DNA of 64,000 bases from a virus (taxonomy: Duplodnaviria > Heunggongvirae > Uroviricota > Caudoviricetes), in the IMG/VR virus record IMGVR_UViG_3300037484_000445, positions 32,001-96,000 of that record, one strand, 5' to 3'. Shown piece by piece: positions 32,625 through 54,173 of this stretch. A program made the translations under genes and the position numbers. The notes below the pieces were generated by a model, which was not told where the DNA came from, did not search any database, and worked only from the letters and a program-made list of their open reading frames with translations. Position 1 is the stretch's first letter; each line of letters opens with the position of its first letter.

Positions 32625-34019
32625 TTGAGCACCAACACCGCACAAAGAAGGCTCATAGCCAGGTACCTCAACGCGAAACCCGTGGAGAACAAAATCGATC
32701 TTCACACAGAGTTTCCGATTGCTATGTTGCGTCTGGCGGGATCCGAACGAACCGCGGCCTTTCCTCCTTTTTCCAAGAATGGTCCCCCTGAACAACCAGT
32801 TGAAGGGGGCGGTACTTCAAAGCGAAACATTCCCAAGGATCACCCTTACGACCCACGATCCTTGAAGCCTATGGCCAAGTCGTTGTGGGCTGCGAGCGTG
32901 AGTTTAGGTCATGCCCTAACGGCTTATCGTCACTTGAGCCGCTTGAAGTCCGGTACCATCAGCCCCGATGGGATGCTTGGGGGGCGGGGTTACGTGATGG
33001 GTATAGCGGATATCCGCAAGAAGCTCTATGACGCTTGTGAAGCCCTAAGTGCCATCACGGATACCCTTCACGACGAGATCATGGCACCTCATTGGAAGCC
33101 TCGTTTAGCTCAATTGGATGCTGAAGAGGCCGAGGACGTCGAGAACTACGTTGAGGAATCCCAGGAAATATTAGCCAATCCTGAGGATGAGGCTGAAGAA
33201 GAGGCTGACGAGATCGAAAGTCACAAGCCCAAGGCAAAGGGCGCTGATGACGAAGATGAGAAGGACGAGGACGAAGGATCCTCGGAATTACCCGGTGGTG
33301 GAAGCCCACCTGAAGCGTCGGCACCCCAACCGATGACGCCCAAGATGGCTAATTCGGCGTGGCCTACAGGAGTGCTTCCTGGGGGCCCTAGAATTGTGCA
33401 TTTGGATCGTCAAGATCCAGACCCCAACCCTCCTGAGGCCTACCCTTCCGATGACTGGGGGACTCCAACGGAAAAAGAGTACCTGTACCCCACACCGTTT
33501 ATGGGTGTCACGGTGCAGGCTGAATCCGTTGTGCCCGACGCTACAACGGAAGACACACCCACGGAAGCTTGGGACTTTGGATTGGGCTACGGTGCTCACG
33601 GACAGGGTGCTGGCGGGTACGAGAACCCTTCGGACGAAGGTGTTGGCAACAAGGGTGTTTGGGGACCACACAGTGGTCTGCCTGGAACTCCCCCTATTTC
33701 TTCCGGGGATAGTACACCAGAACTAGATTACAAGACCAATGAACACTTGGCCCAAGGGCTTCTCCCGAATGACGGCCAACCCCCTGTAGCTCGGACGGAC
33801 TATTTCCGTGGGGATCGTGGAAATCTGATCAACACGCAATCCACTTTACCAGGAGAGTCGACGCCAAGCGGAGAGTTTGCTCCTAGCTTGATGAACACCG
33901 ACTTCACCTATGAGGACGTAGAAACCCCTTACGTCCGATATGACTACACCACTCACGATTACAGGAAAGACCCCCTTCATGCTTGGCCTCAAAAAGCTGA
34001 GCAGGACAAAGAGCCATGA
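32625..34019 (+). CDS. putative internal head protein (acidic, low complexity)
   Basis: 464 aa; RRLIARYLNA tag and RLAG, RTAA, KMAN, VQAE motifs between segments. Confidence 0.6.
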   Translation: MSTNTAQRRLIARYLNAKPVENKIDLHTEFPIAMLRLAGSERTAAFPPFSKNGPPEQPVEGGGTSKRNIPKDHPYDPRSLKPMAKSLWAASVSLGHALTAYRHLSRLKSGTISPDGMLGGRGYVMGIADIRKKLYDACEALSAITDTLHDEIMAPHWKPRLAQLDAEEAEDVENYVEESQEILANPEDEAEEEADEIESHKPKAKGADDEDEKDEDEGSSELPGGGSPPEASAPQPMTPKMANSAWPTGVLPGGPRIVHLDRQDPDPNPPEAYPSDDWGTPTEKEYLYPTPFMGVTVQAESVVPDATTEDTPTEAWDFGLGYGAHGQGAGGYENPSDEGVGNKGVWGPHSGLPGTPPISSGDSTPELDYKTNEHLAQGLLPNDGQPPVARTDYFRGDRGNLINTQSTLPGESTPSGEFAPSLMNTDFTYEDVETPYVRYDYTTHDYRKDPLHAWPQKAEQDKEP

Positions 34020-35983
34020 CTGAACTTGGAGACTTGACTAGCTTCTTCAAAGAGGGTTCAGCTGTTTCCAACCTCGATTGGTTGGACGTTGACGAGCAAG
34101 CCTATCGTGAGTTGGAGACGCTCCCGAAGCAGAACTTGGATATAGCTCCAGACCTTGAGGCTCTGTGGAGTCATCAAGATGGGTCTCCGTCCAAACTCGT
34201 TCCAAACACAGGTGCCCCAAGAACTATGGGGGATCTTTCTGAGGCTCACGGGCGACTGCGTTCGGTGCCTGAGGATTTGATCCGAACGGCTCGATTGGCC
34301 ATAATCCAAACGACGAACCCCCAAAAGATCAGTAACTTACTGAAGGTTCGTTATGACGGCGATACCCTGGCCGCGGCGAAAACAGCCTTAGGTCAGGTAT
34401 TTGCTGAGCGTGGTCTATTGGGCAGGCTCTATATTGCTGCCAGCGATTTCACCAATTGTCAGGCATCGGCGGACTTTGTTCGACGCTTTGCTTCCGAGGC
34501 TAAGTACGTTTTAGCCAAGCAAGCTTGCGGTGATTGTACCCGCAGACATGCCCAGGCTAATGGATCCAGTCATTGTAGTGTGTTTCACAAGGAAATACAG
34601 CTGGATGTTCCCTACTCAGAGGCTTTGGCTCGCGAAGTCGAAAAGCGAGAAGTTTCTAAGAGTAAGGCAATACAAGCCTCGAGTGCAGATCCTAAAGAGA
34701 GGATCCGTAATGCCTTCTTGGCAGAGGAGTTCGCAACCTCAGCTAGCTTCACAGGACGTACTCAGGTGGTTTCACCTCGAGTGGCCGTTGATACTAGTCA
34801 GGTTCTGATATCTGCCGAGAACCTGACCAAACAACGTAAGGCTAGCGAGCAAAAGGCCCTAGCTGAAGTCAAAGCTCGTCCAATTGTGGCCCTACTCCGT
34901 CGAGAGATGATCAAAGGTCGCTCCGCTGAAGAGTTGGTCAAGACCTTGAGGTTGGCATTCGATGTTAGGGACTTGGGTGAGACTCAAGCCGTGTGGGCTC
35001 CTTTGTTTAAGGAAGCTGGCCTCTATGGTGCAGTCTACATCACACAGGAATCCTTCGACGATTGCCGTGAAGGGGCTGACTTCACGAACAAGCATGCTTC
35101 CAAGGCTAGGGCCATTGTGGCCGGCAACAAATGCTCTAGTTGCTTCTTCCGTCAGGCAGCTCGTTGCATGATGTACGGCCGTAAGCTGATTGGTTCGGCT
35201 GAAGAGGTGCTCACAACCGAAACCGTTCAAGCCGTGATTGATGAAGGTCGTATCGCTGGTAAACTGCCCTACGACGCAGCTCAGAGGCATTGGGGGTCTA
35301 CTCCAGTAGAGGCTCTGAAAGCCCTTCACAAGGCAGCCTCGGCGCCCCTGGCTGGGACCGTCTTGGATGTCCGCGGTACCATTGAAAGAGCCTTCCATGG
35401 TGCCACCCGCGTCACTCAGACAGGTGAGCTCACGAAGCGCAACATTGTAAAGGCAACTTCGCGGTATCTGAATGAAGGTCTTTATGGAGAAGACCTCAAA
35501 CAGGTACTTCAGAGTAGCTTTGGCCCGAGGGATCTTCTGGCTGCAGCCCAAGAACTCAAGGTGGTTCTGGCTGAGCAAGGACTCCAAGGCATCAAGTACA
35601 TCGATCCGACAGTCTATGCCGATTACGGAAAGGGTTGTGCTGAAGCGTCTCGGCTTCATCGATCGCGATCTGCAGTTCGCTACGCAAAGGTGGGTCCCAG
35701 TTGTGGATCTTGTGTCCACCAATCTTGCCCAGGTACATGCTCGGTCCTCAACAAGCTGTTAGTCGTTGAGCCCCCCTATATTGACAAGTTGGCAGAACAG
35801 CAAGCCATCCTAGATTCAGGGCGTTCGACAGAGGTTACTTACGCCTCTTTGGTGAACAACGGTCTCACAACAATGCAGGAGTACCAGTTGCAGAACCAAG
35901 ACATGTCCTTGGATCTCAATCCTGTAATGGCTTCAGATGCCACTTGGGTTGAGTTTGGTGTGCAGCAGGAGCTCAAACTGTGA
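34016..35983 (+). CDS. head-module protein with three about 190-200 aa Cys-rich repeats
   Basis: Three copies of GLxGxxYI..C..CxxC..C starting near 34409, 35015 and 35576. Confidence 0.7.
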   Translation: MTELGDLTSFFKEGSAVSNLDWLDVDEQAYRELETLPKQNLDIAPDLEALWSHQDGSPSKLVPNTGAPRTMGDLSEAHGRLRSVPEDLIRTARLAIIQTTNPQKISNLLKVRYDGDTLAAAKTALGQVFAERGLLGRLYIAASDFTNCQASADFVRRFASEAKYVLAKQACGDCTRRHAQANGSSHCSVFHKEIQLDVPYSEALAREVEKREVSKSKAIQASSADPKERIRNAFLAEEFATSASFTGRTQVVSPRVAVDTSQVLISAENLTKQRKASEQKALAEVKARPIVALLRREMIKGRSAEELVKTLRLAFDVRDLGETQAVWAPLFKEAGLYGAVYITQESFDDCREGADFTNKHASKARAIVAGNKCSSCFFRQAARCMMYGRKLIGSAEEVLTTETVQAVIDEGRIAGKLPYDAAQRHWGSTPVEALKALHKAASAPLAGTVLDVRGTIERAFHGATRVTQTGELTKRNIVKATSRYLNEGLYGEDLKQVLQSSFGPRDLLAAAQELKVVLAEQGLQGIKYIDPTVYADYGKGCAEASRLHRSRSAVRYAKVGPSCGSCVHQSCPGTCSVLNKLLVVEPPYIDKLAEQQAILDSGRSTEVTYASLVNNGLTTMQEYQLQNQDMSLDLNPVMASDATWVEFGVQQELKL

Positions 35984-36471
35984 AACGTCTTCGTGGCCAA
36001 TACGAGTATGTAGCCATTTTTGATGACGCCTCCTATTTTCCGGGCGTGTCAAAGGCGGCTAAAAAAGTTGCCGCTGCTTTTAGGGCTTCGACAGTGGTTC
36101 ATCGTTTGGTCGCTCGTTACAAGACAGCAAATCAGCCTCCAGGAGCTCGGCAGAAGGCTAGGAAGAACACGAACCCCATCAACAAACCTAGGGGTATTGT
36201 CAAGGAAGTAGCCAAAGAACACGGCGCTATGCGAGTAGAGGGGGACGACAACGTCAGGCCTCAATCTCGAGACATTTTGCCTAAGGACGTCTTCACACCC
36301 ACCCCCGATCATACAGGGGTCCTGAACCTAGCTCAGAGTGGGAAGGACTTGTCCAAACCTATCAATAAGCAGGTCCCCAAGGATAAGGGTTACGACGTTG
36401 TTCGCAACCTCTCTCAGTACCTGATCCGAACGAAAGGTACCGGAGAAGAGGGGACCGAGGAAGGTCGTTAG
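35980..36471 (+). CDS. basic putative internal head protein
   Basis: KVAA, FRAS, and HRLVARYKTA tag followed by a K/R-rich region. Confidence 0.6.
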   Translation: MKRLRGQYEYVAIFDDASYFPGVSKAAKKVAAAFRASTVVHRLVARYKTANQPPGARQKARKNTNPINKPRGIVKEVAKEHGAMRVEGDDNVRPQSRDILPKDVFTPTPDHTGVLNLAQSGKDLSKPINKQVPKDKGYDVVRNLSQYLIRTKGTGEEGTEEGR

Positions 36472-36472
36472 T

Positions 36473-37096: not shown

Positions 37097-39088
37097 ATGG
37101 CCAAAACCAAAGGCCTGTCCAGCCTTGTTCGTCAGGTTGGGCAAAAGATCAGAAGCAACAGCGGGGGCGAGGTAGTCGGGTCTGATGGTCCGAAGATTTT
37201 CAATATTCTCGACTACATAGAACAGCCTTGGGGTCTCAACATGACCCTTTACCCAGCTCAGCGCTTCATTGTGAAGCTCTACTATGGGTTGGAGTTGGAC
37301 ACCACCTTACCTGAGGATCCCAATCAGCGGATCCAGGTGACGGATATGTTCAAGTCCGAGGTGAAGTACGAGTTCACCGAGGTGGAGTACCTTCATTACC
37401 TGTTCAATGAGGGTCGATGTAACATTGGTGCTCAGGACCATAGCCGACGAGAGTTGGTTATGCCCATCGGTCGCCGTGGCGGCAAGACTACTCTTTCAGG
37501 CATTTTTGCCAGTTATGAGATCTACCGCCTTCTCAACCTGTACAACCCACAGTCTTACTATGGGTTGCCGAATGGCAACCGTATTCAGATCATGTCGGTT
37601 GCAACAGGCAAAGAGCAGGCTGGTTTGCTCTTCAATGAAGTCACCTCGCATTTAGCCAAGTGCGAGTACTTTAGCCCTTTCATTGCGAACAACACCCTGT
37701 CGCATGTGAATTTTCGTACCCCCTACGACATTGAGAAGTTCGGGCCAGCCGCTCGACAAGAGAACGGCAAGTTCGTCAGCTTCAATGGTAAGGCCACTCT
37801 TCGCGTAACCTTCAATAGCTGCATAGCTAAGGGTCTTCGTGGTCACGGTAACATCGTGATCATTTTGGATGAGGTCGCTCACTTTCAGGACAAGGGCAAT
37901 AGTTCGGCTCAAGAGGTTTACAACGCTGTTACGCCGTCGTCAGCCGCCTTCTCCTACAAGGATCCTAAGACTCACCGTCCTGCCATCGATCGCGTAACGG
38001 GCAAAGAGGCAGAAGTCGAGAGTCGCATTATCTTGATTTCGTCCCCCTTAGGTCGTTCGGGGTTGTTTTACAACCGCTACGACTTAGCCATGAGAGGTGG
38101 CGAAGGGGCCGAGAACATTCTGGCTATTCAGGCACCTACTTGGGAGATCAATCCTACGGTTCCGGGGGCCTACTACAAGCAAAAGTACCATGAAAACCCA
38201 CCAGTTTTCATGGTTGAGCACGGGGCACAATTCAGCGACCAAACTCGAGGCTGGATTGAGCGTGAATCGGATCTCACAGCTTGTATTAGGTCTTCGTTGC
38301 GCCCCAAGAGAATGGCTGCCCCGCGGCAACCCCATCAAATGGGGATTGACGTTGGTTTGGTCCGTGGTGGCGACGGTACCACTGTAGCCATCACACACAC
38401 AGAGGAAGACCGGATAATTCTTGATTACCATGAGGGCTGGTACGCCGGCATCGATTGGCGTGTAACTAACCCTCACTTGGATGGGATTTTTTCGGTCGAT
38501 TATGCCCGTAGAATAGCCGACGTTGAACGCCTGGACTTTGACGAGATCGCCGAGTGGATCAAATCCCTTTGCCAGAAGTTCCACATTACGGCTGGGTTAT
38601 TTGACCGTTGGAACGGTATTCCGCTTGAACAAGCCCTACATAAGAAAGGCCTGAAGCAGTTCAAGTCAGAGTTCTTTCCGAGGGACACAACGAGCAAAAT
38701 CTACCAAACCGTCAAGATGACCATGTACGACCAGAAGTTGGTTCTCTATGACTACCCCTTACCTGAACGTGTCACAGAGGGATCTCGTCATTCCCCTCTG
38801 ATTGCAGAGCTATTGTCTCTGCAAGCCACCCAGGTTTCCAAGAACATGGTGGTCGTCGAAGCCCCGGAAAAATCAGGTAGTCACGACGATTTCAGCGATG
38901 CCTTGGTCCGGTCTGTCTGGCTTTCGACCGAAGTCATTATGAACCGCAAGCACACTTCTCACGGGAGTCCTTATCATCCGGTAATAGCATCATCTATGAG
39001 TCCTCAACGGTACCAACTGTCGCGAGCTCGACACCACGGTATAAGTGACCGTAGTTTGGTTGGTCGTAGCATTGTGAGGCCGAGGTAA
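37097..39088 (+). CDS. terL: terminase large subunit
   Basis: LYPAQ, IGRRGGKT Walker A, QA, IILDE Walker B, LISSP coupling motif, nuclease GID and HDDFSDA. Confidence 0.92.
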   Translation: MAKTKGLSSLVRQVGQKIRSNSGGEVVGSDGPKIFNILDYIEQPWGLNMTLYPAQRFIVKLYYGLELDTTLPEDPNQRIQVTDMFKSEVKYEFTEVEYLHYLFNEGRCNIGAQDHSRRELVMPIGRRGGKTTLSGIFASYEIYRLLNLYNPQSYYGLPNGNRIQIMSVATGKEQAGLLFNEVTSHLAKCEYFSPFIANNTLSHVNFRTPYDIEKFGPAARQENGKFVSFNGKATLRVTFNSCIAKGLRGHGNIVIILDEVAHFQDKGNSSAQEVYNAVTPSSAAFSYKDPKTHRPAIDRVTGKEAEVESRIILISSPLGRSGLFYNRYDLAMRGGEGAENILAIQAPTWEINPTVPGAYYKQKYHENPPVFMVEHGAQFSDQTRGWIERESDLTACIRSSLRPKRMAAPRQPHQMGIDVGLVRGGDGTTVAITHTEEDRIILDYHEGWYAGIDWRVTNPHLDGIFSVDYARRIADVERLDFDEIAEWIKSLCQKFHITAGLFDRWNGIPLEQALHKKGLKQFKSEFFPRDTTSKIYQTVKMTMYDQKLVLYDYPLPERVTEGSRHSPLIAELLSLQATQVSKNMVVVEAPEKSGSHDDFSDALVRSVWLSTEVIMNRKHTSHGSPYHPVIASSMSPQRYQLSRARHHGISDRSLVGRSIVRPR

Positions 39089-40911: not shown

Positions 40912-41385
40912 ATGCCAAGCCCCTCTACCCCAGAATCCTCAGCTGCCAAACGTGTCGAGCATGAGGCTGCTCTTGCCGAGCGTGAAGAACGTGAGGTTGA
41001 GGCGTTAATCCAGAAAGTTAGGGAAGCTAAGAGCGAAGCCATGGAAAAGCTCTTGGCTTTGGGCACTTGTGCAGATGCCTTACGCCAACATGGGCGCCGT
41101 AACCACACGGACATGTCCGGTGCCTTGATTATGTTTGCCACGGCCCACATGAGAATTGCGGGGGCCGCAATTCAAGGGATCCGTCGGACAGGCCCAGTTG
41201 ATCGTGTAGTTGATCGCGCCAAGTCTGAAAGGACTGAGGCCATCCGTTTCGAGGAAGAGCGTTTGGTGAGAGAAAATTCCCGCAAGGCTCGCGAGAAAGC
41301 TCAACGACAGGTCGATCGTCTAACCTTCCCTGTTGATAACGACGCTATCGATGAACTTTACGGGGAGGTAGATTCAGATGCCTAA
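40912..41385 (+). CDS. helical hypothetical protein
   Basis: Charged coiled-coil ORF overlapping the portal start; the ATG at 40912 avoids an upstream overlap. Confidence 0.6.
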   Translation: MPSPSTPESSAAKRVEHEAALAEREEREVEALIQKVREAKSEAMEKLLALGTCADALRQHGRRNHTDMSGALIMFATAHMRIAGAAIQGIRRTGPVDRVVDRAKSERTEAIRFEEERLVRENSRKAREKAQRQVDRLTFPVDNDAIDELYGEVDSDA

Positions 41386-43210
41386 TTACACGAACAGCCC
41401 AGTAGGGCCTCAATATATTGTACGTACTTCGCTACGTCAACATCGCCCCTATGTGGCCAGCAGTTTTTCGAGTCAACTGACTCCTAAAGAGCGTCTAGCC
41501 CGGCAGCAGCAAAAAGTCGCCAACGGGATGGGGACTGCGGGTGGATATGGAGTTGGTGGAGGATTTGGCGGCAGTAGTATCGGTATGGGTGGTGCTGGCA
41601 GCACGATCTTGAGTTCTCAGGGTAACTTCTTCAGTCCACAACTCTCGACTGACTTCCTCGAGTTACCTCAGAGCATTCGTGAGCGCCGAGAGATCTACAG
41701 GCACTTCTACAATTCCGATGAGTTGGTGGGTCAGGCTCTAGACATCCACACTGAGCTACCTCTTTCCAAAGTTCGGTTGGCAGCGCCTAAACCTAGACTA
41801 GCCCCTAAGGGTTTCAAAAGTCCCGAGGATTACGGTAAGTACATTCTCAGTCGATTCCAACGTATGTGTGATAGGGTTAAGCTATTTCAGCGCCTCATCA
41901 CCATGGTCCACCACTATTGGTTGGATGGGCTGGCCTGCATTTTTGCTGAGGATAGCGTAGTCGAGGTTCCTCCTGAAGTGGGTCACACTCGCCAGCGGGT
42001 AAAGCAAGCTGTCCTTAAGGAAGATGGTGTGCCTGTTGAAGAGGAAGTGGACATTTGGACTGAGGATGAGACTACTGAAGAGCGAGAATTTACGTACTAT
42101 CGTAAGCATTACCGTGGGTGGGAAAAGCTCATTGTCCTTCCGATCGATAGGGTCAAGATCACAACCTTCGATTACACAGACAAGTCTATTGTCGAGCTGA
42201 TTCCTTCGAACAGAGACCGAGTTCTCATCGATAAAGCTCGAACAGGTGATCCCGTAGCCCAGAAGTTGGTCCAAGAGATTCCCGATGAGGTTAGGGACCA
42301 TATCGAGAAGGGCCAAGCCATACCTTTGGGAACAGATCCCGAAGAAGGCTCTTTTGCCTACATCCTCACGGGTAGCAAAGATGCGGATTCTTCCTTGGGT
42401 CATTCGATCCTAGATCGGTGCCTAAGGACCTTGTATTACAGGGAAAAACTACGTCAAGCTCAGACGTCGATTGCTTCTCGGGCTATGACACCCAAGCGCA
42501 TTGTTTGGGCTGAAGGGCTTTCTGATGTGGACGTCGACATGCTCCGTGAGCAGGTAGATTTGTCCTTGGTTGACCCGGACTACTCTATCGTCACGAACTA
42601 TGAGGTTCATTGGGAGGAGATGGGTTCTAGGGACCGTTTGTTGGATCTCTCCACCGAGTATGAACAGACGGAACGGCGCCTTTTGGCAGGTCTTGGTGTG
42701 ACCGAGAGCCTTATGTCTGGGGAGTCTCTCTATTCGGGAGATCGCCTCAAGCTAGAGGTCATCAACCAACGATACTTACATCTTCGTGAGATCCTGCAGG
42801 AGTACGTCGAAGAAAGCCTATTCCGTCCAGTAGCTCAGCGTATGGGCTTCATCGAGGAGGATGAGTGGGGTCAGGAAGTCGTGTTGTTTCCACGGTTGAG
42901 TTTCACGCGGATGCCCCTACGTGACAGTCAGGACACGTTCGATGCTTTGATGAACCTGTATCAAAAGGGTTCGATATCTATCGATCTCATCCTCGAGTTA
43001 CTAAATATCGATCCCGATGACACACGGATGAAAATCGAACGTGACCTGTTCACGGTCAATGACGCCTTGTTCAACGAAATCCTTCGATCGCTTTACAACG
43101 AAGTGGGTCGTATGTTGGCCGAGAAGTCGGACGTTTTGGACCGTGTTGCCAAGTACATGCAGCTGAAGCTGAAACCTGAGGAGCCTGAAGAGGGGGCCAG
43201 TCGTTTCTAA
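41378..43210 (+). CDS. portal protein
   Basis: 610 aa between TerL and the protease; FY..D.LV..ALD.H.ELPLS, G.SIL.RC.R.L, LLAGLGV.ESL.SGE..YS, portal-like helical layout. Confidence 0.82.
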   Translation: MPNYTNSPVGPQYIVRTSLRQHRPYVASSFSSQLTPKERLARQQQKVANGMGTAGGYGVGGGFGGSSIGMGGAGSTILSSQGNFFSPQLSTDFLELPQSIRERREIYRHFYNSDELVGQALDIHTELPLSKVRLAAPKPRLAPKGFKSPEDYGKYILSRFQRMCDRVKLFQRLITMVHHYWLDGLACIFAEDSVVEVPPEVGHTRQRVKQAVLKEDGVPVEEEVDIWTEDETTEEREFTYYRKHYRGWEKLIVLPIDRVKITTFDYTDKSIVELIPSNRDRVLIDKARTGDPVAQKLVQEIPDEVRDHIEKGQAIPLGTDPEEGSFAYILTGSKDADSSLGHSILDRCLRTLYYREKLRQAQTSIASRAMTPKRIVWAEGLSDVDVDMLREQVDLSLVDPDYSIVTNYEVHWEEMGSRDRLLDLSTEYEQTERRLLAGLGVTESLMSGESLYSGDRLKLEVINQRYLHLREILQEYVEESLFRPVAQRMGFIEEDEWGQEVVLFPRLSFTRMPLRDSQDTFDALMNLYQKGSISIDLILELLNIDPDDTRMKIERDLFTVNDALFNEILRSLYNEVGRMLAEKSDVLDRVAKYMQLKLKPEEPEEGASRF

Positions 43211-43242: not shown

Positions 43243-46200
43243 ATGCACCGTGAGGCCACAAAGACTGATCTGCAGAAGCAGGATGAGGAGTTTCAGCGCT
43301 TAGTAAGGCCTAGCCCTAAGCAAAAACCTCCTCGTCATGACCTGCGTCGTGAGCGGGTCGACCTTGAAAGTGATCCAGACAATGAGGATCCTTCAGACAA
43401 GAAGGATCGCAGTCGTAATTTCAAGGATATTGGTGGGTCTGTCATTGCTCGTCTGGTTCATCGAGCCCGGACTGAGCGAATTCCCGCTAGGAGCCGTGAA
43501 ACCGGCGATGTTGTTCAAATCTCACCGAAGACACTGAAGGAGCGCCCGGGTGAGTATGAGGTCGTTGAACCCGAAGAGGAAAGCTCAAAAACCGAAGGTA
43601 TTGAGCCTAAGGAAGAAGAACCTGAAGCGAAGCCCGAAGGTCCGACAGAGTCGTCGAAACGTACGAAGTTCTACCAAGATGCCGGGAACGCTCTACGTGA
43701 CTTAGCTCAAGGTGATCCTAAGCTCACAAATAAGTTGAAGGACTTTGGGCGTCCTGATTCACAGATTTCTGGTCTTGCCAAGGAGAATCCGGATTTTCCT
43801 GCAGCCAAGCTGTTTCCCGGCGTTACCCTACCTAAGGGTTTGAACACCCTGGGGGACATCAAGGAGGCTTTAGCTAACGCTGTGAAGCCTTCAAAGAAGA
43901 CGAAGGCACCATCCACGAAGCCTCCACCAGCTGAGGCTCCTCAAGAATCCCCAGGGGCAAAGGCCCAAACTGAAGAGCCCCCTTCAGCAACTGAAGAGCC
44001 CCCAGCAGCGCCTAAGAAGAAGGAACCACCTAAGCCCCCTAGCCCCAGAGCTCAGGCTCCACAGGAGGCGCCTGAGGCCAAAGAGCCACCCACTAAGGCC
44101 AAGGCTCCTAAGAGCAAGAAAGGGCCCGGGACCCCGCCTCAAAAGCCTGAGGCTAAGCCAGAAGCCCAGAAGCCCCAGCGTCCCAAAGAAGAGGGTGACC
44201 TTGAGTCTCCCAAGTCTGGGGTGGAGGTTCTTGATCACATCCCCACGAAGGCTGAGCTCTACCAAATCAAAAAGCCCCCGCGGCGCGAAGTTTCATCGGA
44301 CGAACGACAGGCAGCCCTGAGTCTTTTGATGGACACGTTTCCGCCGAACATTTCGTCGGAGCTCATAGCCAAGAACATTCACCCGGATGATGTGCGTGAA
44401 CTTGTTCGTAGTTACGGTGCTGCTAAGGCAGCGGGCCCAAAGAATCTGGATCGTCTAGTCTCCACGGTTTCTAAGGTTTACCAGACCGATCCCGATGAGG
44501 TTGATCCCCCTACCGAAGGGCTTAACGCTCAGGGTGCGACGGTTTCGTTTGACCAGTTAACCCCGGAAGAACAGGCGGAAGCTACCTTGAAGCATCAACT
44601 TCAAGTGTCGGCATTAAGCCTTGCGGCACACGATATTCTCACGGACAAATTGTCTCAAAAGGGCGCCATTTCTGGAAGGGCCCGTGTTCCCTCGAGTTTG
44701 GCTTCGACTCTGGCCGATAACATCCTCAGACCGCCGGATCCGAGCAATGTCGCAGCCATAGCATCGGAGACGTTCAAGGCTGCTCTTGAAGGGGGCGGCG
44801 GTTCTCTGAGTCCTAAATCAGCTAAGGCTCTGTTAACACGAATCTCTAAGTACCCTGGCGCAAAAGAGATCGCCACAGCCTACATGCAGGCTGCCGATTA
44901 CACTCAAGCTAAGACCGAATTCCTAGATAGCGCTGAGATTAGTGAATGGGATAGGCCAGGCAAGATCGTCAAAGGCCTAGGTAAAGCCGAGGAGTTCTTC
45001 CGTAAGCGCAATGCTGAGTACGGCACTTCTGGAGAGCATCCGGCGGCACGGATGTTTAGACAGCGAGTTGTTAACCGTTTGAATGCCCTTGATCCTACTA
45101 AGGCTAAGGCTGTTAGAGGTCGTTTGGCAGAACTCGAGAAGTCCGAATACGCCGACCAGGTGAAGGACTGGCACGAGGCTATGAAAGAGTACTTGGAGCG
45201 TAAGAAAGAACACGCCCAAGCCCATGCTGAGTACCTTTCGAACCCCCAAGGCAAGTCGCCTCCGGGTCCGTTTTTGGATGTTGCGCCCACAGAGCCAGCC
45301 AAACCGGCCCACAGTTTCGACAAAGAGGAAGGTTCCAAGTTGTGGAGTGACCTAAGGGAGCCTTCAAAGAAACCGAAGCCTGCCAAACCGGCTACTCCAA
45401 AGACGCCTGAATCCACGGAAACTCCCGAGCAAATTGCTGCTGTTGCAGATGAAGCCTGGGACAAAGCCCAACAGGAACAGGGGAAGACCGCTTCAGCGGT
45501 TGATAGATTCACTTATTCATTACGTTCTGTGATGGCCCCCTCTGCCAAGACCAGTGTGTATCACGGGATTGATCCAAAAACGAACCGTCCAAAAGCCTAT
45601 GAGGGTTGGAGTCAGTTCCACCAGCGGGATTTTGGGGAAAAGGACGTTCAGGCTATCTTGGCTTCGGCTCAGGATTGGCTTAAGTCTCCCTTACTGACGG
45701 TGGCTGTGAATGAGATGGTGCCAGACGCCAAACTTAGGGCGGCTTTGGACTTGGCCATCTACACAGGTCCTTACAATGGGGCCATACCTGCCAAGACTTA
45801 TGATGAACTGTTGGCTAAGTTTGCTGGCGTCAAAGAGCCCGGCCGTGGCGAAACTCTCCTGACAAAAACAGCTGATTTCAAGACGGAAAACGTCTTTCTT
45901 GCTGTTTATGGCCCGACGCCAATTGATGAACGTGTACTGAAGGCTCTCGAAGGCCCTAAGTTCACCTTCATAGACGCTTCGGGGACTGTGTTTGAGGACG
46001 GCACTATCGAGCCTCGTCTCGTACGACAAGGTTCTGTGGGTGCTGGACCAGGGTATGTGGGTGAAACCCTTGTGAGGATCAATTTCCCAGAGGGATCATC
46101 GGATGCTGCCCTCAAAATAGCCACTGGTGTTTTGGGATCCTTGAGGCTTAGGGCTGAAAAAGTTACTGCGTCGTACACACCTTCGTCGAGGGCGGCAGAC

Positions 46201-46524
46201 GAATCCTCTTTTATTCCAACTCCTAGTGATCCCCTCGAAAGTCGACTTTCTATGAAGGCTTCTACCGAAATTCGTAAGTTTGCAGCTCTCGCTGCAAAGA
46301 CCAACCCCAAGCTTGCTTTCGACATGTTGGCTTTTGCCGACCATGTCGCTGAGGAAGAGGGTGCTCAGAAGCCTGAGGAAGCCAGCGAGGCTAAGGGGCA
46401 GCAGAAGGAGGCTTCAAATCGGTTTGCCTCTCTACGGTCCCTCATCATTCGACAAGCGTCTTCTTTGGATGCTTCACAACGTGGGCCTTGGCTGCCTGTT
46501 CTTCAGGCCCTCAAGGATTTGTAA
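43243..46524 (+). CDS. large modular putative internal head protein or polyprotein
   Basis: 1093 aa; P/E/K-rich linkers; segments bounded by HREA, KTAS, KTAD, VTAS, MKAS, QKEAS; possible internal starts at 45532 and 46252. Confidence 0.7.
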   Translation: MHREATKTDLQKQDEEFQRLVRPSPKQKPPRHDLRRERVDLESDPDNEDPSDKKDRSRNFKDIGGSVIARLVHRARTERIPARSRETGDVVQISPKTLKERPGEYEVVEPEEESSKTEGIEPKEEEPEAKPEGPTESSKRTKFYQDAGNALRDLAQGDPKLTNKLKDFGRPDSQISGLAKENPDFPAAKLFPGVTLPKGLNTLGDIKEALANAVKPSKKTKAPSTKPPPAEAPQESPGAKAQTEEPPSATEEPPAAPKKKEPPKPPSPRAQAPQEAPEAKEPPTKAKAPKSKKGPGTPPQKPEAKPEAQKPQRPKEEGDLESPKSGVEVLDHIPTKAELYQIKKPPRREVSSDERQAALSLLMDTFPPNISSELIAKNIHPDDVRELVRSYGAAKAAGPKNLDRLVSTVSKVYQTDPDEVDPPTEGLNAQGATVSFDQLTPEEQAEATLKHQLQVSALSLAAHDILTDKLSQKGAISGRARVPSSLASTLADNILRPPDPSNVAAIASETFKAALEGGGGSLSPKSAKALLTRISKYPGAKEIATAYMQAADYTQAKTEFLDSAEISEWDRPGKIVKGLGKAEEFFRKRNAEYGTSGEHPAARMFRQRVVNRLNALDPTKAKAVRGRLAELEKSEYADQVKDWHEAMKEYLERKKEHAQAHAEYLSNPQGKSPPGPFLDVAPTEPAKPAHSFDKEEGSKLWSDLREPSKKPKPAKPATPKTPESTETPEQIAAVADEAWDKAQQEQGKTASAVDRFTYSLRSVMAPSAKTSVYHGIDPKTNRPKAYEGWSQFHQRDFGEKDVQAILASAQDWLKSPLLTVAVNEMVPDAKLRAALDLAIYTGPYNGAIPAKTYDELLAKFAGVKEPGRGETLLTKTADFKTENVFLAVYGPTPIDERVLKALEGPKFTFIDASGTVFEDGTIEPRLVRQGSVGAGPGYVGETLVRINFPEGSSDAALKIATGVLGSLRLRAEKVTASYTPSSRAADESSFIPTPSDPLESRLSMKASTEIRKFAALAAKTNPKLAFDMLAFADHVAEEEGAQKPEEASEAKGQQKEASNRFASLRSLIIRQASSLDASQRGPWLPVLQALKDL

Positions 46525-46554: not shown

Positions 46555-46947
46555 ATGAAGAAACTATCGAAAGAGCAGTCCGTAGCCGCTAGCCAAATGC
46601 TGGGTCGTGTGGATACCTTGGCTCAGACCGTCATGCAGCGTTATGCTAGCTGGGGGATGAGTCAGGATGACGCCAAGAGGGTAGTGAATGCCCTTGATTC
46701 CGTTGCCGATGACTTCGAGCGTTGTGCTTTTGGTGAGGAGTCCCTTCAGGCTCGCCAGATTGAAGTTCTGAAGCAAGCCAAGGTAATTCAACAGGACAGC
46801 GACGAGTCCTACATGGGCACGTTCAATGCTCCTACGGCCCCCATTCAAACGGACGGTGATGAGCCTTACATGCAGGCTTACAAGGATGATCAGACCACTG
46901 CGGTCAACTCCGGTAAGTCAACTGTTGGTCGTCCTCTCGCTCCGTAA
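46555..46947 (+). CDS. head-module hypothetical protein
   Basis: 130 aa, AGGA RBS; KQA followed by a duplicated IQ.D.DE.YM segment. Confidence 0.65.
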   Translation: MKKLSKEQSVAASQMLGRVDTLAQTVMQRYASWGMSQDDAKRVVNALDSVADDFERCAFGEESLQARQIEVLKQAKVIQQDSDESYMGTFNAPTAPIQTDGDEPYMQAYKDDQTTAVNSGKSTVGRPLAP

Positions 46948-47698: not shown

Positions 47699-49228
47699 AT
47701 GGCCTTTTCAAAGTACGCTAACGCTGTCGTAGCAAAGCCTGTTGTGAGCCTTGACGCTTGGCGGGACTTTCGTGCTAACAGTCTTCCATTCGACAAGAGA
47801 GCGGCTGCTTCTAAGCTTCTTTTGCAGAAGTACGACCCCTCTAATGTGCTCTTGAGCCATGCCACAATCATGGCTTCGGTGGACATAGAGAATGGCCCTG
47901 GATCATTAGGGAGACACCTAGAACAGGGACAAGAGATTGATCGTAGGTTTGCAGATTACTACATAACCCCTAACACTTCCAAGTACGTCAATTCGAACGG
48001 CGATTCTTGGAGTAGGGCCGTTCTTCTTGCTACCTATAAGGGTTTCATTGGGGCACAGAACTACTGTGAACACCTTCAGATCCCGGAGCTTTCTAAGGGT
48101 CGAATCATTGATGCTGCAGCGAGGGACATTGGGGACAGCATCTACATTGATATTTTGGTGGCCACGGAGAAGAAGCACCAACCCCTGATTAAGGCTATCA
48201 CTTCGGGGCAGCTGAACACCATGAGCATGGGGTGTTCGGTTGAGTTCACCCAGTGTAGTAAGTGTGGCAACGTTGCTGTCGACGAGACTCAGCTTTGCCG
48301 CTGTGTTAAGTACTCGAAACTGTCAACATTCTTCGACACTTTAGGCCAAAAGCGTGTAATCGCCGAGCTTTGCGGGCACAGTTCTCTCCCTAACTCGGTG
48401 AAGTTCATCGAGGCTTCGTGGGTAGGCAACCCAGCTTTTAAGGGTGCTGTGATCCGAAACATTCTTTCGCCGGACGAGTTGGCTCAATTTGCTCCTCAAA
48501 TCGGCAAGGTCTTTTCGTTCCCAGCGCCTATTGCAGACCCGTCTTTGATGGCCAAGGCTGCTCGGGACCAAGGATATATTGTTAGGCATCTAGGTGACCC
48601 CCGGAGCCGCGTCATTCTAGGGCAGGGACAGGGGTTTGACTTCGGCCAAGGTGGTCAGTTCGAAGGGGCTGATGACGCTCCGAAAGCCGAAGAAACATCC
48701 AAAGAAGACCCACTTCAGAAGGCCGTCGATGACTTAGCAGGGATCCTCAAAGAGAAAGCCCTGGAAAAGGTTCGTGGTGAGATCACACAGAAGGAAGTAG
48801 CTCCTCGTGCGGATCTCAACGAGAACAAGAACGAAGGTTTGATCCGTGAAGCCTCACACGATGCTTATTGGCGTGAAATAGCCAGTTCTGTCGTGGCTAA
48901 GGTTAAGGATCCCACAAGATCTCGTCGGATACTATTAGGTCTTCTGCTGTTCAAGAACGGTGGATGGCACGCGATTCGTGAAGCGAATTGTTTCTCTGGT
49001 CGCGAAGTACTCGGAATCTCTAAGTTTTTGGACGAGTTCGAAGGCGTAAAGATTGCTGGTGAGGCTCGTGTGTACCGAACTGTTTTGGCAGTCGGTGGGG
49101 CCTCCCCATATGGAGATGTAGAAGGCTTTTTAGCGGCATGTCGCCGTGTTTTTCGTCGAGAGTTGACTTCCTCTGAGCGAGACGCCCTCATCACTAAGGG
49201 ACGCCTCTATGACCTCGGGTCGTTGTAA
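47699..49228 (+). CDS. prohead (maturation) serine protease, HK97/assemblin clan, with Zn-ribbon insert
   Basis: N.NGD, YCEH (His), KGRIID, MSMG (Ser), CSKCG..C.C, FIEASWVGNPAF; directly upstream of scaffold and capsid genes. Confidence 0.8.
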   Translation: MAFSKYANAVVAKPVVSLDAWRDFRANSLPFDKRAAASKLLLQKYDPSNVLLSHATIMASVDIENGPGSLGRHLEQGQEIDRRFADYYITPNTSKYVNSNGDSWSRAVLLATYKGFIGAQNYCEHLQIPELSKGRIIDAAARDIGDSIYIDILVATEKKHQPLIKAITSGQLNTMSMGCSVEFTQCSKCGNVAVDETQLCRCVKYSKLSTFFDTLGQKRVIAELCGHSSLPNSVKFIEASWVGNPAFKGAVIRNILSPDELAQFAPQIGKVFSFPAPIADPSLMAKAARDQGYIVRHLGDPRSRVILGQGQGFDFGQGGQFEGADDAPKAEETSKEDPLQKAVDDLAGILKEKALEKVRGEITQKEVAPRADLNENKNEGLIREASHDAYWREIASSVVAKVKDPTRSRRILLGLLLFKNGGWHAIREANCFSGREVLGISKFLDEFEGVKIAGEARVYRTVLAVGGASPYGDVEGFLAACRRVFRRELTSSERDALITKGRLYDLGSL

Positions 49229-49230
49229 TT

Positions 49231-49252
49231 CTCTTTATAGATACACACTTGA
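49231..49252 (+). promoter_or_regulatory. CTTTAT-N10-TTGA putative late promoter of the scaffold-decoration-MCP operon
   Basis: CTCTTTATAGATACACACTTGA. Confidence 0.45.
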
Positions 49253-49272
49253 GTAGAAAGGGTGATCCCGTC

Positions 49273-50577
49273 ATGCGTGAGAGAACCACTTGGAACCGTA
49301 ACACCATTTGTCGGTTGGCCAGCGCTCTTAGGACCGCTGAAGACCCGACCGCAATGAATCAAGATCACATCAAGCAGCAGCCAGCTGCTGACAAGTACGT
49401 AACGGGCGACCCTTCCTCTTTCGCCGAGGATGTCCATCCCTCTACCGGTACTTGGAAGGCCGAATACTCAGGTGATGAGGTCAAGCGCAATGAGATCGGG
49501 TTGCCCGAAATGCGTGGCGACACCTTCAATCACAAGGAAAAGACGGCTGCCGACGACGATGACGATGATGACGGGGATGACGACGAATTCCTCGAGAAAA
49601 AGGCTGAGGTTTGCCTTGGTCTAGCTCGACGAGTTCTCGCCAAGACCGCTTCGGAATCAGTCGTCGAAGACCAAGCTTTCGCCTTCATGCACCTCCCTGA
49701 CGCAGCTTTGATCGAGACTGTGAATCGTCTGGCCTCACAGGAAGAGGATGACGACAAGGATCAGCAGCAGAAGCAAGGCGGTAAGATCCCACCCCAGTTC
49801 CTCGAGAACATCCAGAAGAAGAAGGATGAGGCCAAGGACGACAAAGGTGAGGACAAGGGCCAACAGCAGAAGGAAGCCCAAGGTCAGCAACAGCAGGACG
49901 ACGGCGATAAGGGCCAGCAACAGCAGAAGCAGGCCCAGGGCCAGCAACAGCAGGACGAGGACAAGGGCCAACAGCAGAAGGAAGCTCAAGGCCAACAGCA
50001 ACAGCAGGACGAGGGCCAGCAGCAGAAGCAAGCCCAACAGGATCAGATCTCTCAGTTGCAACAGCAGGCTCAGCAACTCCAGGATCAAATCGCCCAACTG
50101 GTTCAACAGTCTCAGTTGCAACAGCAACAGTCCCAGCTGCAACAGCAGCAGGGCCAATTGCAGGGCCAACCAGCTCCTGTTATGAGTGACGACCAGATGT
50201 TGGACCAATTGATCCAACAGCAGACGATCCCACAGCAGCAACAGTTCACAGCTAGTGAGTCTTTCGATATTCAACTCGAAGGACCCTCGATTGACACTGG
50301 TGTGCATCTGGGCAGCGAAGACGAGGCCCTTAGTGCCATCTTTGCCAGCCACTCTGAGGTTCGTGAAGCTGCACAAGCTCAAGCTCTCCAAACGGGTATC
50401 CCCGTTCAGGCGAGTATAGGAATGACCCGTACGGCATCGACTCGCACTGTTGGTACTCGTCCGAGTGCCGGCGTTTCGCAACTCGGTGGCAACACCAGTT
50501 CTGGATCACGAAGTGAAGTCGACAAGCTAGCCGGGCTTTGGCAGTCAGCTCCGGATGTGTCGAGTGTGTTCGACTGA
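49273..50577 (+). CDS. capsid scaffold protein with poly-Q/acidic repeats
   Basis: Lies between protease and decoration/MCP; low complexity with a coiled coil and many K/R-x-A motifs; ATG at 49273. Confidence 0.72.
   Translation: MRERTTWNRNTICRLASALRTAEDPTAMNQDHIKQQPAADKYVTGDPSSFAEDVHPSTGTWKAEYSGDEVKRNEIGLPEMRGDTFNHKEKTAADDDDDDDGDDDEFLEKKAEVCLGLARRVLAKTASESVVEDQAFAFMHLPDAALIETVNRLASQEEDDDKDQQQKQGGKIPPQFLENIQKKKDEAKDDKGEDKGQQQKEAQGQQQQDDGDKGQQQQKQAQGQQQQDEDKGQQQKEAQGQQQQQDEGQQQKQAQQDQISQLQQQAQQLQDQIAQLVQQSQLQQQQSQLQQQQGQLQGQPAPVMSDDQMLDQLIQQQTIPQQQQFTASESFDIQLEGPSIDTGVHLGSEDEALSAIFASHSEVREAAQAQALQTGIPVQASIGMTRTASTRTVGTRPSAGVSQLGGNTSSGSRSEVDKLAGLWQSAPDVSSVFD
49849..50040 (+). repeat. about 4 tandem copies of a roughly 50-nt coding repeat (DKGQQQK[E/Q]AQGQQQQD)
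   Basis: GAGGACAAGGGCCAACAGCAGAAGGAAGC recurs exactly; CAG/CAA-rich tract continues to about 50245. Confidence 0.85.
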
Positions 50578-51346: not shown

Positions 51347-52225
51347 ATGCACCAAGTTTCAAATGAACTGAAGCAACAGATCATCAGTGAGTACGTCAAG
51401 ACCGCCGCTGGTCGTGCCAAGCTCGCTGCTTCGATGGTTCAACCGCTCCGCATGCGTCGTGATTACACGGCGGTAGGTCGTAAGACCTTCTTGGTGGAGC
51501 AGCTTCCGGATGGGGCACTGCCCATCTACGATAAGGATCCCGACGTGTCAGCCTTTGTGGTTGGCGAAGAGGGTCAGAACATCCTTGCCATCCAGAAGCC
51601 ACGTAGGGTCATCTTCCCGTTGTTCGAGATCGCCTCGAACCCCGAGATCCCCCTCACGCAGATCAAGGAGCGTCGTTTCGACCTCATCGAACGTAGCCAG
51701 GACCTTGCAAAGGCCCAGATTCAGGCTGCCGAAGATGAGCGTGTGTTTGCAGTTCTCGACTCGATCGCGATGTCGGGCTTCGACACTCTCCCTGGTCAGC
51801 TGAACCCCGACGTCGCCGTCGTAGCTCCGATCAGCCCATCAGTCCTCGCGGACGCCTTTGCTGAGATCGAGCGTCACGACTTGCGTGTTGCCCGTATCTA
51901 CATGAATGCCGTCGACTACGCCGACATTCGTAAGTTCGGTCGCGACATTCTCGACATCGAGAGCCAGGCCACGTTGCTGAAGACCGGTCTTCAGGCAACC
52001 CTCTGGGGCGCCCAAATCATCACGAGCCGTCTGGTCCCAGCCGGTTACGTGTACGTTTGCGGCGAGCCGGAGAACTTCGGTCGTATGCCGGTTCGTACGG
52101 AACTCACGGTTCTGTCCGCGGACGACCCGAAGGCTCGTACGATAGGATTTTCTTGCTTTGAAAACCTGGGTATTGGGGCGTTCAACCCCCGTGCTCAGAC
52201 CCGTCTGGTTGTCACTCGCGTGTAA
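51347..52225 (+). CDS. major capsid protein (HK97 fold)
   Basis: 292 aa after protease/scaffold/decoration; R..LA.SM.QPLR...DY..VGRK, spine helix AKAQIQAAED, LWGA.I..SR.VP.G; followed by a strong hairpin. Confidence 0.88.
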   Translation: MHQVSNELKQQIISEYVKTAAGRAKLAASMVQPLRMRRDYTAVGRKTFLVEQLPDGALPIYDKDPDVSAFVVGEEGQNILAIQKPRRVIFPLFEIASNPEIPLTQIKERRFDLIERSQDLAKAQIQAAEDERVFAVLDSIAMSGFDTLPGQLNPDVAVVAPISPSVLADAFAEIERHDLRVARIYMNAVDYADIRKFGRDILDIESQATLLKTGLQATLWGAQIITSRLVPAGYVYVCGEPENFGRMPVRTELTVLSADDPKARTIGFSCFENLGIGAFNPRAQTRLVVTRV

Positions 52226-52252
52226 TCAGATCAAGCCTAGAAAGGCTGAATT

Positions 52253-52286: not shown

Positions 52287-52300
52287 GCCATTTGGTATTT

Positions 52301-52318
52301 GGTGTACAACATTCTATG
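52301..52318 (+). promoter_or_regulatory. GGTGTA-N9-ATG putative leaderless promoter of ung
   Basis: GGTGTACAACATTCT-ATG. Confidence 0.55.
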
Positions 52319-52957
52319 CACTCCTCGTGGAAGACATTCCTGTCCCAAGAGTTCAAAAAGCCCTACTTCAGGGATCTTGCAGAATTCGTTCGGGAAGAAC
52401 GCTCGAAGCAGGTCGTGTTTCCTGCTTCAGGAGATGTTTTCAACGCTTACAAGCTACCCCTCGAGAAGGTCCGAGTCGTTATCTTAGGGCAGGACCCTTA
52501 TCACAATGCGGGACAGGCCCACGGTTTGAGCTTCTCTGTGCTCCCTGGAGTAAAGCCCCCTCCCAGCCTTCAGAACATCTTCAAGGAGCTCCACGAGGAT
52601 TTGGGTGTTCCAATTCCAAAGCACGGGCATTTGGCAACGTGGGCTGAGCAGGGGGTCTTCCTGCTCAATGCCACGCTCACGGTCCGAGCTCACTCACCCG
52701 GTTCTCATCAGGGTAAGGGTTGGGAGACTTTCACCGACGCTACCATCAAAGTCCTTGGTCAACGTTCGGAACCCATCGTCTTCGTGTTGTGGGGTAAATA
52801 TGCTCGATCCAAGGCGCCCCTAATACCTGAACACCATCATATCCTCGAGTCCCCTCACCCTTCGCCTATGTCCGCCCATCAGGGATTTTTTGGTAGCCGC
52901 CCATTCTCCAAGATTAATGCGGCTTTAGGGGGTGAGGGTGTCAATTGGGCATTGTAG
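52316..52957 (+). CDS. ung: family 1 uracil-DNA glycosylase
   Basis: GQDPYH, GLSFS, PPSL.NI, GVFLLN, LWG, HPSP; natural start MHSSW at 52316. Confidence 0.97.
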   Translation: MHSSWKTFLSQEFKKPYFRDLAEFVREERSKQVVFPASGDVFNAYKLPLEKVRVVILGQDPYHNAGQAHGLSFSVLPGVKPPPSLQNIFKELHEDLGVPIPKHGHLATWAEQGVFLLNATLTVRAHSPGSHQGKGWETFTDATIKVLGQRSEPIVFVLWGKYARSKAPLIPEHHHILESPHPSPMSAHQGFFGSRPFSKINAALGGEGVNWAL

Positions 52958-52983
52958 TTCATTTGTGAAGCGCCTAAAGCAAG

Positions 52984-53607
52984 ATGACCTCGGTTCAAGC
53001 CAGCAACCTTGTTCGCCGCTTCAAGGAAGCCTATAGCCCCAGTGTTACTATACCGAGGCCAGCGTACTTGCCTCCACAAGTTCGAGGCATGGATCCAATG
53101 GTCCCTGAGGGCACGGATATAGCTATCTGGCTTTGGGAAGAAAACGGTAAGCCCTACGGAATCGCCTTTCAGGCCAAATCCAATAAGCCCTTGTGGCACT
53201 TCAGTTTCCGAAACGAGGCTGAACGGGACCGCCGAGTTAAGCAGACCATAGACTCACGAAAGCTTACGTTGGAACGTAAGCAAAAAGAACAGCAGGAACG
53301 GCGTGAGTTCAAGCACCCTTACAATGAAGGGGATATTCTCTACTCCTCTTGGGGGTATGACGAGACTCACATCAACTTCTATCAGGTGACGGATCTCAAG
53401 GGGAAAATGGTTCTAGTCCGTCCTATAGCTTCCAAGACCACCAAAGAGGAGAAGGGTGCTGACTACGTGAGTGCCGCCAAGGATCACTTCACGGGGTCCG
53501 CAGTCAAGGTTCTACCGACGCCGAATGGTTTGAAGATTGACGGCCACTACGCCACCATTTGGGACGGAAAGCCCAAGTACGAGACGGCTATGGGTTGGGG
53601 ACACTAA
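52984..53607 (+). CDS. putative internal head (cargo) protein
   Basis: N-terminal VQASNLVRRFKEA leader, then a domain containing GDILYSSWGYDET..NFYQV. Confidence 0.65.
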   Translation: MTSVQASNLVRRFKEAYSPSVTIPRPAYLPPQVRGMDPMVPEGTDIAIWLWEENGKPYGIAFQAKSNKPLWHFSFRNEAERDRRVKQTIDSRKLTLERKQKEQQERREFKHPYNEGDILYSSWGYDETHINFYQVTDLKGKMVLVRPIASKTTKEEKGADYVSAAKDHFTGSAVKVLPTPNGLKIDGHYATIWDGKPKYETAMGWGH

Positions 53608-53609
53608 TA

Positions 53610-54173
53610 ATGGTCGTTGACCGTATAGTCTTGTACCACGGCACAGACTTGTCTCGGGCCCCTATCCTTAGGGTACGTAGCTACTCAACAACGGACTTTT
53701 GGATAGCTGCTTCGTATGGTTTGGATAAGACGGATCAGAAGGAATGCTACGTTCACGAGTATGTCGTAGACAATCCCTTTGAGATCATTAATCCTGACGA
53801 AAAGCATTGGTGGAACCAACAGCAAAGGCTGGACTCCAAGTACAACACTGAGATGGGCCATGACGCTTTCTTGAACAACGAGCCTCTTAAATCTTCTGGT
53901 AAGAAGTGGCACTTTGTCTTGAAGCCCGAAAAGACTCTTGGCTCTAATAAGTGGCACAACTACGACATTACGCCCAGACCGCCGCAACCTATGAGATCTG
54001 CCTCAGTTCGCCGCATTGTGGCTCGCTACAAGAGGGCTGTTATCCGCAAGGAGAAAGGGGAGTACTGTGTTAGGTCCCCTAACAATCCCGATTGGAATGG
54101 AGGGTGCTACCCCTCCAAAGAGAAGGCTGAGGAGCGACTTCGAGAGGTTGAGTACTTCAAGCACAAGGACTAG
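53610..54173 (+). CDS. ADP-ribosyltransferase-like domain plus tag plus small C-terminal module
   Basis: LYHGT ... YSTTD..IA.SYG ... VHEY; RRIVARYKRA; IRKE.GEYCV.S....G.Y.SKE.A.ERL.EVEYFKH. Confidence 0.5.
   Translation: MVVDRIVLYHGTDLSRAPILRVRSYSTTDFWIAASYGLDKTDQKECYVHEYVVDNPFEIINPDEKHWWNQQQRLDSKYNTEMGHDAFLNNEPLKSSGKKWHFVLKPEKTLGSNKWHNYDITPRPPQPMRSASVRRIVARYKRAVIRKEKGEYCVRSPNNPDWNGGCYPSKEKAEERLREVEYFKHKD

Follow-up and report, generated by a model that had tools for sequence, protein, structure and literature searches.

A short basic helix as a probable portable address tag, and a possible capsid-targeting signal, in a clade of uncultured huge phages

Why do proteins that have no similarity to one another carry the same short basic peptide? 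The question is raised by a 64,000-nucleotide stretch of DNA (the window), bases 32001-96000 of the 451,925-bp IMG/VR record IMGVR_UViG_3300037484_000445 (estimated completeness 94%), which belongs to a clade of uncultured huge phages. A first-pass annotation had pointed to four open reading frames (ORFs) sharing the pattern (L/I)(V/I)xR(Y/F)xxA, and had read it as an address label that loads accessory cargo into the prohead and is then clipped out. The four peptides translate exactly as it claimed, and the four ORFs show no similarity outside the motif, so that paralogy of the carriers was rejected. Our findings indicate that the motif is, with good confidence, a portable address tag on unrelated proteins; capsid targeting, as judged from sequence, is the leading mechanism, at a likelihood that we place somewhat short of even. 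The tag copies and their carriers are as follows (window positions).

32625..34019, + strand: carrier 1, a 464-amino-acid (aa) orphan encoded upstream of TerL, its middle part acidic and of low complexity
32646..32675, + strand: tag copy 1, RRLIARYLNA, residues 8-17 of the 464-aa ORF
35980..36471, + strand: carrier 2, a 163-aa orphan two genes upstream of TerL
36100..36129, + strand: tag copy 2, HRLVARYKTA in translation
52984..53607, + strand: carrier 3, a 207-aa phrog_37844 protein
53005..53031, + strand: tag copy 3, NLVRRFKEA, residues 8-16 of the 207-aa ORF
53559..54173, + strand: carrier 4, a 204-aa ORF
54009..54038, + strand: tag copy 4, RRIVARYKRA, 6 codons past an in-frame ATG at 53991

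Enrichment, position and anatomy of the motif

The 648-651 ORFs called over the whole 452-kb genome (G000) were scanned for the motif, together with three relatives taken whole as complete or near-complete genomes: G001 (437 kb), G002 (412 kb) and G004 (398 kb). Their TerL is only 61-67% identical to that of G000 and their major capsid protein (MCP) 88-91%; this is the inverse of the usual order and hints at an unusually strong constraint on the capsid protein. By MCP, the closest public phage records are LR745208.1 (82%), Tunturiibacter phage Tunturi_5 (49%) and Bacillus phage G (39%), the last two, of the same capsid type as the clade, serving as outgroups. IMG/VR holds more than 575 MCP relatives, the best 80 of which are all 84-95% identical. 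The MCP-based locus search matched clade members only (84-95% identity), with none from intermediate lineages, and 51 neighbourhoods from such members make up our head-module survey; L196, L197, L198 and L236 denote further relatives.

The pattern as first annotated occurs 6 times in the ORFs of this genome, compared with 0.9 in shuffles, and the form [LIV][LIV]xR[YF][KL]xA occurs 9 times in the 452-kb proteome, compared with 0.34 in shuffled and 0 in reversed sequences. Additional copies lie far beyond the window, nearly all of them 6-12 residues from the start of an ORF. In this regard, residues 5-13 of ORFs hold the core h-[VA]-x-R-[YF] at about 10 times the density seen in protein interiors: 13 cases were counted in G000, 9 in G001, 6 in G002, 17 in G004 and 4 in LR745208.1, where 0.4-0.75 are expected from a null in which only the first 21 residues are shuffled (0.68 for G000). 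Reversed-motif controls gave 0-2 occurrences. The core was found at these residues in neither Tunturi_5 nor phage G (0 in each), and a de novo search of these two outgroups for another N-terminal motif returned noise only. From this enrichment in five genomes and the zero counts in two outgroups we therefore conclude that the tag is real and confined to one clade of huge phages, whose MCPs are at least ~82% identical. No description of it was found in the searchable literature.

ORFs beginning M-x(3-9)-[RKQ]-[VIL]-[VA]-x-R-[YF], of which there are 15-28 per genome in G001, G002 and G004, were used to build a profile. At a cut-off of 7 bits it recovers 67 instances on 64 proteins across the four genomes, about 18 of these carriers belonging to G000. 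The tag sits on ~3% of ORFs, and each genome has it on 15-25 proteins that are otherwise unrelated. The proposal of a portable label is thereby borne out well beyond the original four copies, and clade-wide. It had also been suggested that the label may be N-terminal or internal; both placements do occur, but they are not equal options, as 47/67 instances start at residues 6-16 and the tag usually begins 5-10 residues past the initiator Met.

The consensus is A-x-R-[VIL]-[VA]-x-R-[YFW]-[KLQ]-x-[AKS]. Numbered from the first aliphatic residue, it reads Ala(-3), Arg(-1), [VIL](0), [VA](+1), any residue, an invariant Arg(+3), an aromatic(+4) that is Tyr or Phe and in some copies Trp, then [KLQA], any residue and [AKS]. 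Arg at -1 is present in only ~65% of copies. On a helix projection, positions -3, 0/+1 and +4 form a hydrophobic stripe with Arg on both flanks, and the helix of 10-12 residues carries a net charge of +2 to +5. Mean hydrophobicity is negative, and in the 20 residues that follow K, R, Q and E are over-represented and hydrophobics scarce. Every synonymous codon family for Arg, Leu, Val and Ala is used across the copies, and because codons differ synonymously between them, selection acts at the level of the peptide and not on a DNA or RNA element.

Two details of the first-pass annotation find no support in this alignment. The xAS motif said to precede the peptide is out of register between copies, the recurrent residues being Ala at -3 and Arg at -1. 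As for clipping at the terminal Ala, this residue occupies +7 in only 28/67 copies (42%), and Lys takes its place in 7/12 G001 copies; no cleavage-site residue is conserved after the aromatic in the 67 copies. The sequence neither supports nor excludes removal of the tag.

Cargo, dialects and turnover of the tag

Across the four genomes the carriers are mostly orphans, with a median length of 190 aa. Those that can be recognised include type-IB topoisomerases (4), a poly(A)/CCA nucleotidyltransferase with an HD domain, a Zeta-toxin-like P-loop kinase, the Thoeris inhibitor Tad3, LPD1 and DUF5662; KOW is also found among carriers of nucleic-acid type, and two matches are weak (a sub-threshold DnaJ and an M66-like one). 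The tRNA nucleotidyltransferase is tagged at full length (PolyA_pol, RNA-binding and HD regions) in G002 (98643-100133) and G004 (248288-249712), and the CCA-adding enzyme homologue of the present genome (273841-275196) is untagged.

The tag differs between genomes in a consistent manner. Leu stands at position 0 in 8/18 copies of this genome and in 0/49 elsewhere in the four genomes; Lys at +5 is found in 10/18 copies here and in 1/24 in G004, where Leu accounts for 13/24; Ala at +1 is present in 12/12 G001 copies; and Phe at +4 is found in 10/13 copies in G002 as opposed to 1/12 in G001 (Fisher p from 1e-3 to 7e-6 for these contrasts). Because the tags of unrelated carriers drift in concert within a genome, a single reader per genome is implied, that is, a putative common partner that would co-evolve with the tags of each phage.

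The tag is gained, lost and decayed independently of its cargo. Orthologues of carrier 1 in G002 and G004 have no tag. In the family of carrier 3, the closest orthologues still have a tag, though one that has diverged to His or Trp at +4, and one G004 orthologue and all distant orthologues begin directly at the conserved core. In the AlphaFold2 model of this protein the tag is a separate helix (residues 4-15; predicted local distance difference test, pLDDT, ~55-62), joined by a coil to a confident core (pLDDT >84). Carrier 2 has its tag at residue ~43 of the longest ORF, with a GTG at 36094, and the start of its G004 orthologue falls right ahead of the tag; an Atlas search with the 163-aa protein gave no match above noise. 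From 53991 onwards, carrier 4 corresponds to stand-alone N-tagged genes in G004 (132 aa) and L197 (57 aa). Its upstream part (53559-53990, the N-terminal ~145 residues) has no homologue in G001, G002 or G004, and Pfam and PHROGs searches with it were empty; it overlaps the preceding gene by 49 nt.

Units made of a tag plus a domain stand as genes of their own in one genome and are joined in another, where the junction still holds the tag. The type-IB topoisomerase, for instance, is free and N-tagged in this genome and in G001; in G004 it is part of a 955-aa protein, where an internal tag precedes it. Similarly, the 288-aa protein at genome position 448048 reads tag-domain-tag-domain, its first unit being a separate 91-aa gene in G004. 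Among the non-N-terminal copies, 8/18 have a Met 4-11 residues upstream and 4 are C-terminal. True internal copies are gene-fusion relics, able to decay: in G002_96360, where an N-terminal tag, Tad3 and a C-domain are fused, decay has affected the internal copy, which stand-alone orthologues keep. This fits one working tag per polypeptide.

A second element, approximately EARKxYLxxHPxADPxxHTV, follows a helix, often the tag, in one to three proteins per genome (genome positions 30640, 195762 and 408154; also in G001 and G004). One 1013-aa G004 protein has three copies of it, and in L196 and L198 it comes right behind the tag variant of the portal-adjacent protein.

Capsid targeting and its rivals

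To what would such a tag be addressed? The proposed mechanism begins with a two-turn amphipathic basic helix, followed by a flexible linker and a cargo domain of unrelated fold. Its reader would lie within the prohead assembly core, where the candidates are the scaffold, the clade-specific domain at the C-terminus of the protease, and the MCP with its inner face or its N-arm. Tagged enzymes and anti-defence proteins would be incorporated while the capsid assembles and then delivered along with the DNA, in the manner of the T4 capsid targeting sequence (CTS) and the P1 DarB N-terminus. The genes concerned are listed below (window positions).

37097-39088: TerL
41378..43210, + strand: portal protein, untagged
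43243..46524, + strand: portal-adjacent protein of the head module, 1093 aa
43447..43476, + strand: degenerate tag ARLVHRARTE in the portal-adjacent protein, with Ala in place of the aromatic, directly after an NFKDIGGS motif
47699..49228, + strand: prohead protease, with a clade-specific C-terminal all-helical domain from ~48596
49249..50577, + strand: putative scaffold, 442 aa, poorly conserved, untagged; candidate reader
51347..52225, + strand: MCP of phage-G type; candidate reader

The portal-adjacent protein provides a first link to the capsid. Across the clade it measures 900-1350 aa and carries the tag at about residue 70, after a conserved NYKxIGGS motif; of 33 distinct orthologous sequences, 17 have a canonical tag and about 9 a degenerate one, and about 6 have lost it. 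The weak site noted earlier in the 43243 ORF is accordingly real, a degenerate orthologue of the canonical tags of relatives, and the closest relatives of this genome retain it in the same form. The other weak site, RLASALRTA at the scaffold N-terminus (49312), lacks the invariant pair of Arg and aromatic and obtains no profile score. Furthermore, the free tagged 450-aa protein G000_195762 shares a segment with the L236 portal-adjacent protein (residues 47-283 of the former against residues 720-943 of the latter, 44% identity, E 1e-48), and because these segments match, modules appear to be exchanged between this head-module protein and tagged genes that stand alone. The portal-adjacent protein has no Pfam, PHROG or PDB match and no named homologue, and bears no likeness to Tunturi_5 gp328.

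Tagged genes are, in addition, modestly over-represented in the head module, which holds 9/64 of them as compared with 6.4% of the genome (binomial p=0.02); neighbours of TerL and MCP are included in several genomes. The effector-like character of the cargo also speaks for the capsid. A further lead comes from the prohead protease, which has at least 486 aa in every tag-bearing genome and in 45/45 clade head modules, compared with 287-300 aa in the tag-less outgroups. The extension of ~220 aa consists of an acidic linker and a confidently modelled all-helical domain, occurs in 59 database clusters and is always fused. Searches with this C-terminal domain gave no Pfam hit, and structural comparison yielded nothing meaningful (Foldseek E>1, best VIA Z 5.7). 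We regard it as a candidate reader or anchor. The N-arm helix of the MCP, for its part, bears a clade-specific tag-like stretch. Protease length and MCP N-arm are leads only, each being a single contrast between clade and outgroups.

Two neighbouring observations were kept apart from this argument. The 130-aa gene at 46555-46947 is an ORF of its own here and forms the C-terminal domain of the portal-adjacent protein in G001, G002 and G004; a tag-like stretch in its product was rejected, as it is not conserved in orthologues. Pieces of the MCP (residues 4-67, 55-140 and 246-280) are embedded in other proteins, at genome positions 349512, 366358 and 423386 and at 111116 in G001, and a connection of the tag to these four proteins was likewise rejected, none of them being tagged (0 of four).

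Several observations weigh against capsid targeting. Only a minority of tagged genes belongs to the head module, about 85% being placed elsewhere among accessory genes, and the portal, protease, scaffold, MCP and TerL are all untagged. A CCA-adding enzyme and a DnaJ-like protein are not typical capsid cargo, and C-terminal copies occur, unlike the T4 signal. The virion role of the portal-adjacent protein is inferred from synteny, and the correlation with the protease extension amounts to one contrast between clade and outgroups. Lastly, the element [CT]TTAT lies 12-40 nt upstream of 5/18 tagged genes of this genome as opposed to 25/630 others (p=0.0008), but its link to late promoters was not replicated: a position weight matrix built from structural genes recovered tagged genes in 0/4 genomes.

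The [CT]TTAT sites are found ahead of 43243, 49249, 31416, 56961 and 61404 in the window and of 99471, 195762, 216088 and 405547 in the genome, several of these genes belonging to the head module and several being tagged; two tagged genes have ATTTATGCTAA-N3-TTG in common. Another element, GGTGTA, lies 15-19 nt upstream of ~57 start codons genome-wide (in the window, for example, ahead of 54640 on the - strand and of 55885), often as TGGTGTA[TA] and sometimes as palindromic pairs set back to back. One class of genes seems to have it as a promoter or short-leader signal, and it was found upstream of none of the N-tagged genes (0 cases).

The most serious alternative to capsid targeting is that the tag is a docking peptide for a non-capsid hub that gathers diverse enzymes in the infected cell, such as a phage replication or transcription factory, the RNA particles of the phage (Ro60-like or tRNA-like RNAs) or its ubiquitin-like system, a chaperone or a host protein. 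We consider this possible but unlikely. The location of most carriers in accessory regions speaks in its favour, as does the nucleic-acid-related activity of several of them (the type-IB topoisomerase, the CCA-adding enzyme, the Zeta-like kinase and KOW); N-terminal, internal and C-terminal placement is familiar from many short linear motifs, and the genome dialects are compatible with any single reader. Against a hub of this kind stand the conservation of the tag on the portal-adjacent protein, with its exchange of modules, and the enrichment of tagged genes in the head module, and no candidate hub was found.

A degron, that is, a recognition signal by which a phage or host protease would limit the lifetime of accessory proteins, appears improbable. 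It would agree with the terminal preference of the tag and with the fast evolution of the accessory carriers, and the dialects could follow different hosts. Nevertheless, the motif is sharply defined by its invariant Arg and its aromatic, is restricted to a phage clade rather than to a host, and is retained on a conserved head-module protein. We are similarly doubtful, if anything a little more so, of homotypic pairing, in which tags would bind one another to form one multi-protein body or condensate with no separate reader. The amphipathic helix, with its hydrophobic stripe between Arg residues, could serve for such contacts, and self-association would likewise predict that the tags of a genome drift in concert, but a charge of +2 to +5 on 10-12 residues disfavours it and no heptad periodicity continues past two turns.

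Still less likely is a role in membrane binding as an amphipathic helix, or in secretion as a signal of the twin-arginine translocation (Tat) type. The helix is basic, amphipathic and N-terminal, with paired Arg in some copies; yet the mean hydrophobicity is negative and there is no h-region, K, R, Q and E being over-represented at residues +8 to +28 and V, F and G scarce. Moreover, the twin Arg of Tat signals is not conserved, given the frequency of Arg at -1, and the carriers are soluble nucleic-acid enzymes. Finally, a chance or compositional artefact, or a nucleotide signal such as a translation enhancer within the coding sequence, to which the fixed distance from start codons might point, is effectively refuted by synonymous codon usage, by the internal and C-terminal copies, and by the N-terminal shuffle null (13-17 observed, ~0.7 expected with N-terminal composition preserved; reversed controls 0-2).

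Known systems and significance

If capsid targeting is the correct reading, how does the tag compare with the signals already described? In T4, the CTS of IPI-III comprises ~10 N-terminal residues, of which positions 4 and 7 serve targeting and positions 8 and 10 processing (PMC9026906; Mullaney and Black, 1996, as cited therein). Like the CTS, the tag is a short, portable N-terminal peptide on unrelated, fast-evolving accessory proteins whose genes are scattered in the genome; the non-homology of the carriers and the predominance of copies near the N-terminus agree with this likeness. Unlike T4, where targeting is coupled to processing, no conserved protease site follows the tag; it is found on many more and larger proteins, enzymes included, has internal and C-terminal copies, and is known from sequence alone. 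The two consensus sequences appear unrelated.

A short terminal helix that sends unrelated enzymes into a shell is also familiar from the cargo-loading peptides of encapsulins and the encapsulation peptides of bacterial microcompartments, which act at either terminus. The encapsulin shell has the HK97 fold, and the MCP of the present phage is of the HK97 or phage-G type. Those peptides, whose binding sites on the shell are known, differ from the tag in their consensus and belong to cellular organelles.

Phage P1 packages the large anti-restriction protein DarB in its head by means of a signal within the first 30 residues, critical at ~6-10 (PMC9024508). The signal is N-terminal, as is the tag in most copies, but the Dar proteins have no consensus signal, whereas dozens of proteins over a whole clade have a single consensus in common here. 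For polyvalent proteins, in turn, which bear effector domains, Iyer and colleagues predicted packaging into the head and injection (PMC5512222). They resemble our set in their shuffled effector-like domains (LPD1, Zeta-like kinase, peptidase-like), variably fused and encoded beside the portal, and the portal-adjacent protein does trade a module with a free tagged gene, yet it has no recognisable domain itself. PMC5512222 describes no shared address peptide, in contrast to the mostly free-standing and individually tagged genes found here.

These findings allow us to propose, as a possibility that we hold more tentatively than capsid targeting itself, that one helix may act as a clade-wide cargo-loading code, by which 15-25 proteins per phage, among them a type-IB topoisomerase, a tRNA CCA-adding enzyme, kinases and anti-defence proteins, would be packed for delivery with the DNA; the code would be read by the protease C-terminal domain or another protein of the assembly core. 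If true, this would be by far the largest phage capsid cargo set with a single readable signal. Should the tag load capsids, it would provide a sequence-readable list of the proteins that giant uncultured phages inject with their DNA, cargo could be recruited by appending ~15 residues, and foreign proteins could be packaged by the same compact means. Even with a reader outside the capsid, the tag groups ~20 proteins per genome that would act at one place; comprising mostly orphans, several nucleic-acid enzymes and a known anti-Thoeris protein, the tagged set represents a strong functional grouping of otherwise unannotatable genes.

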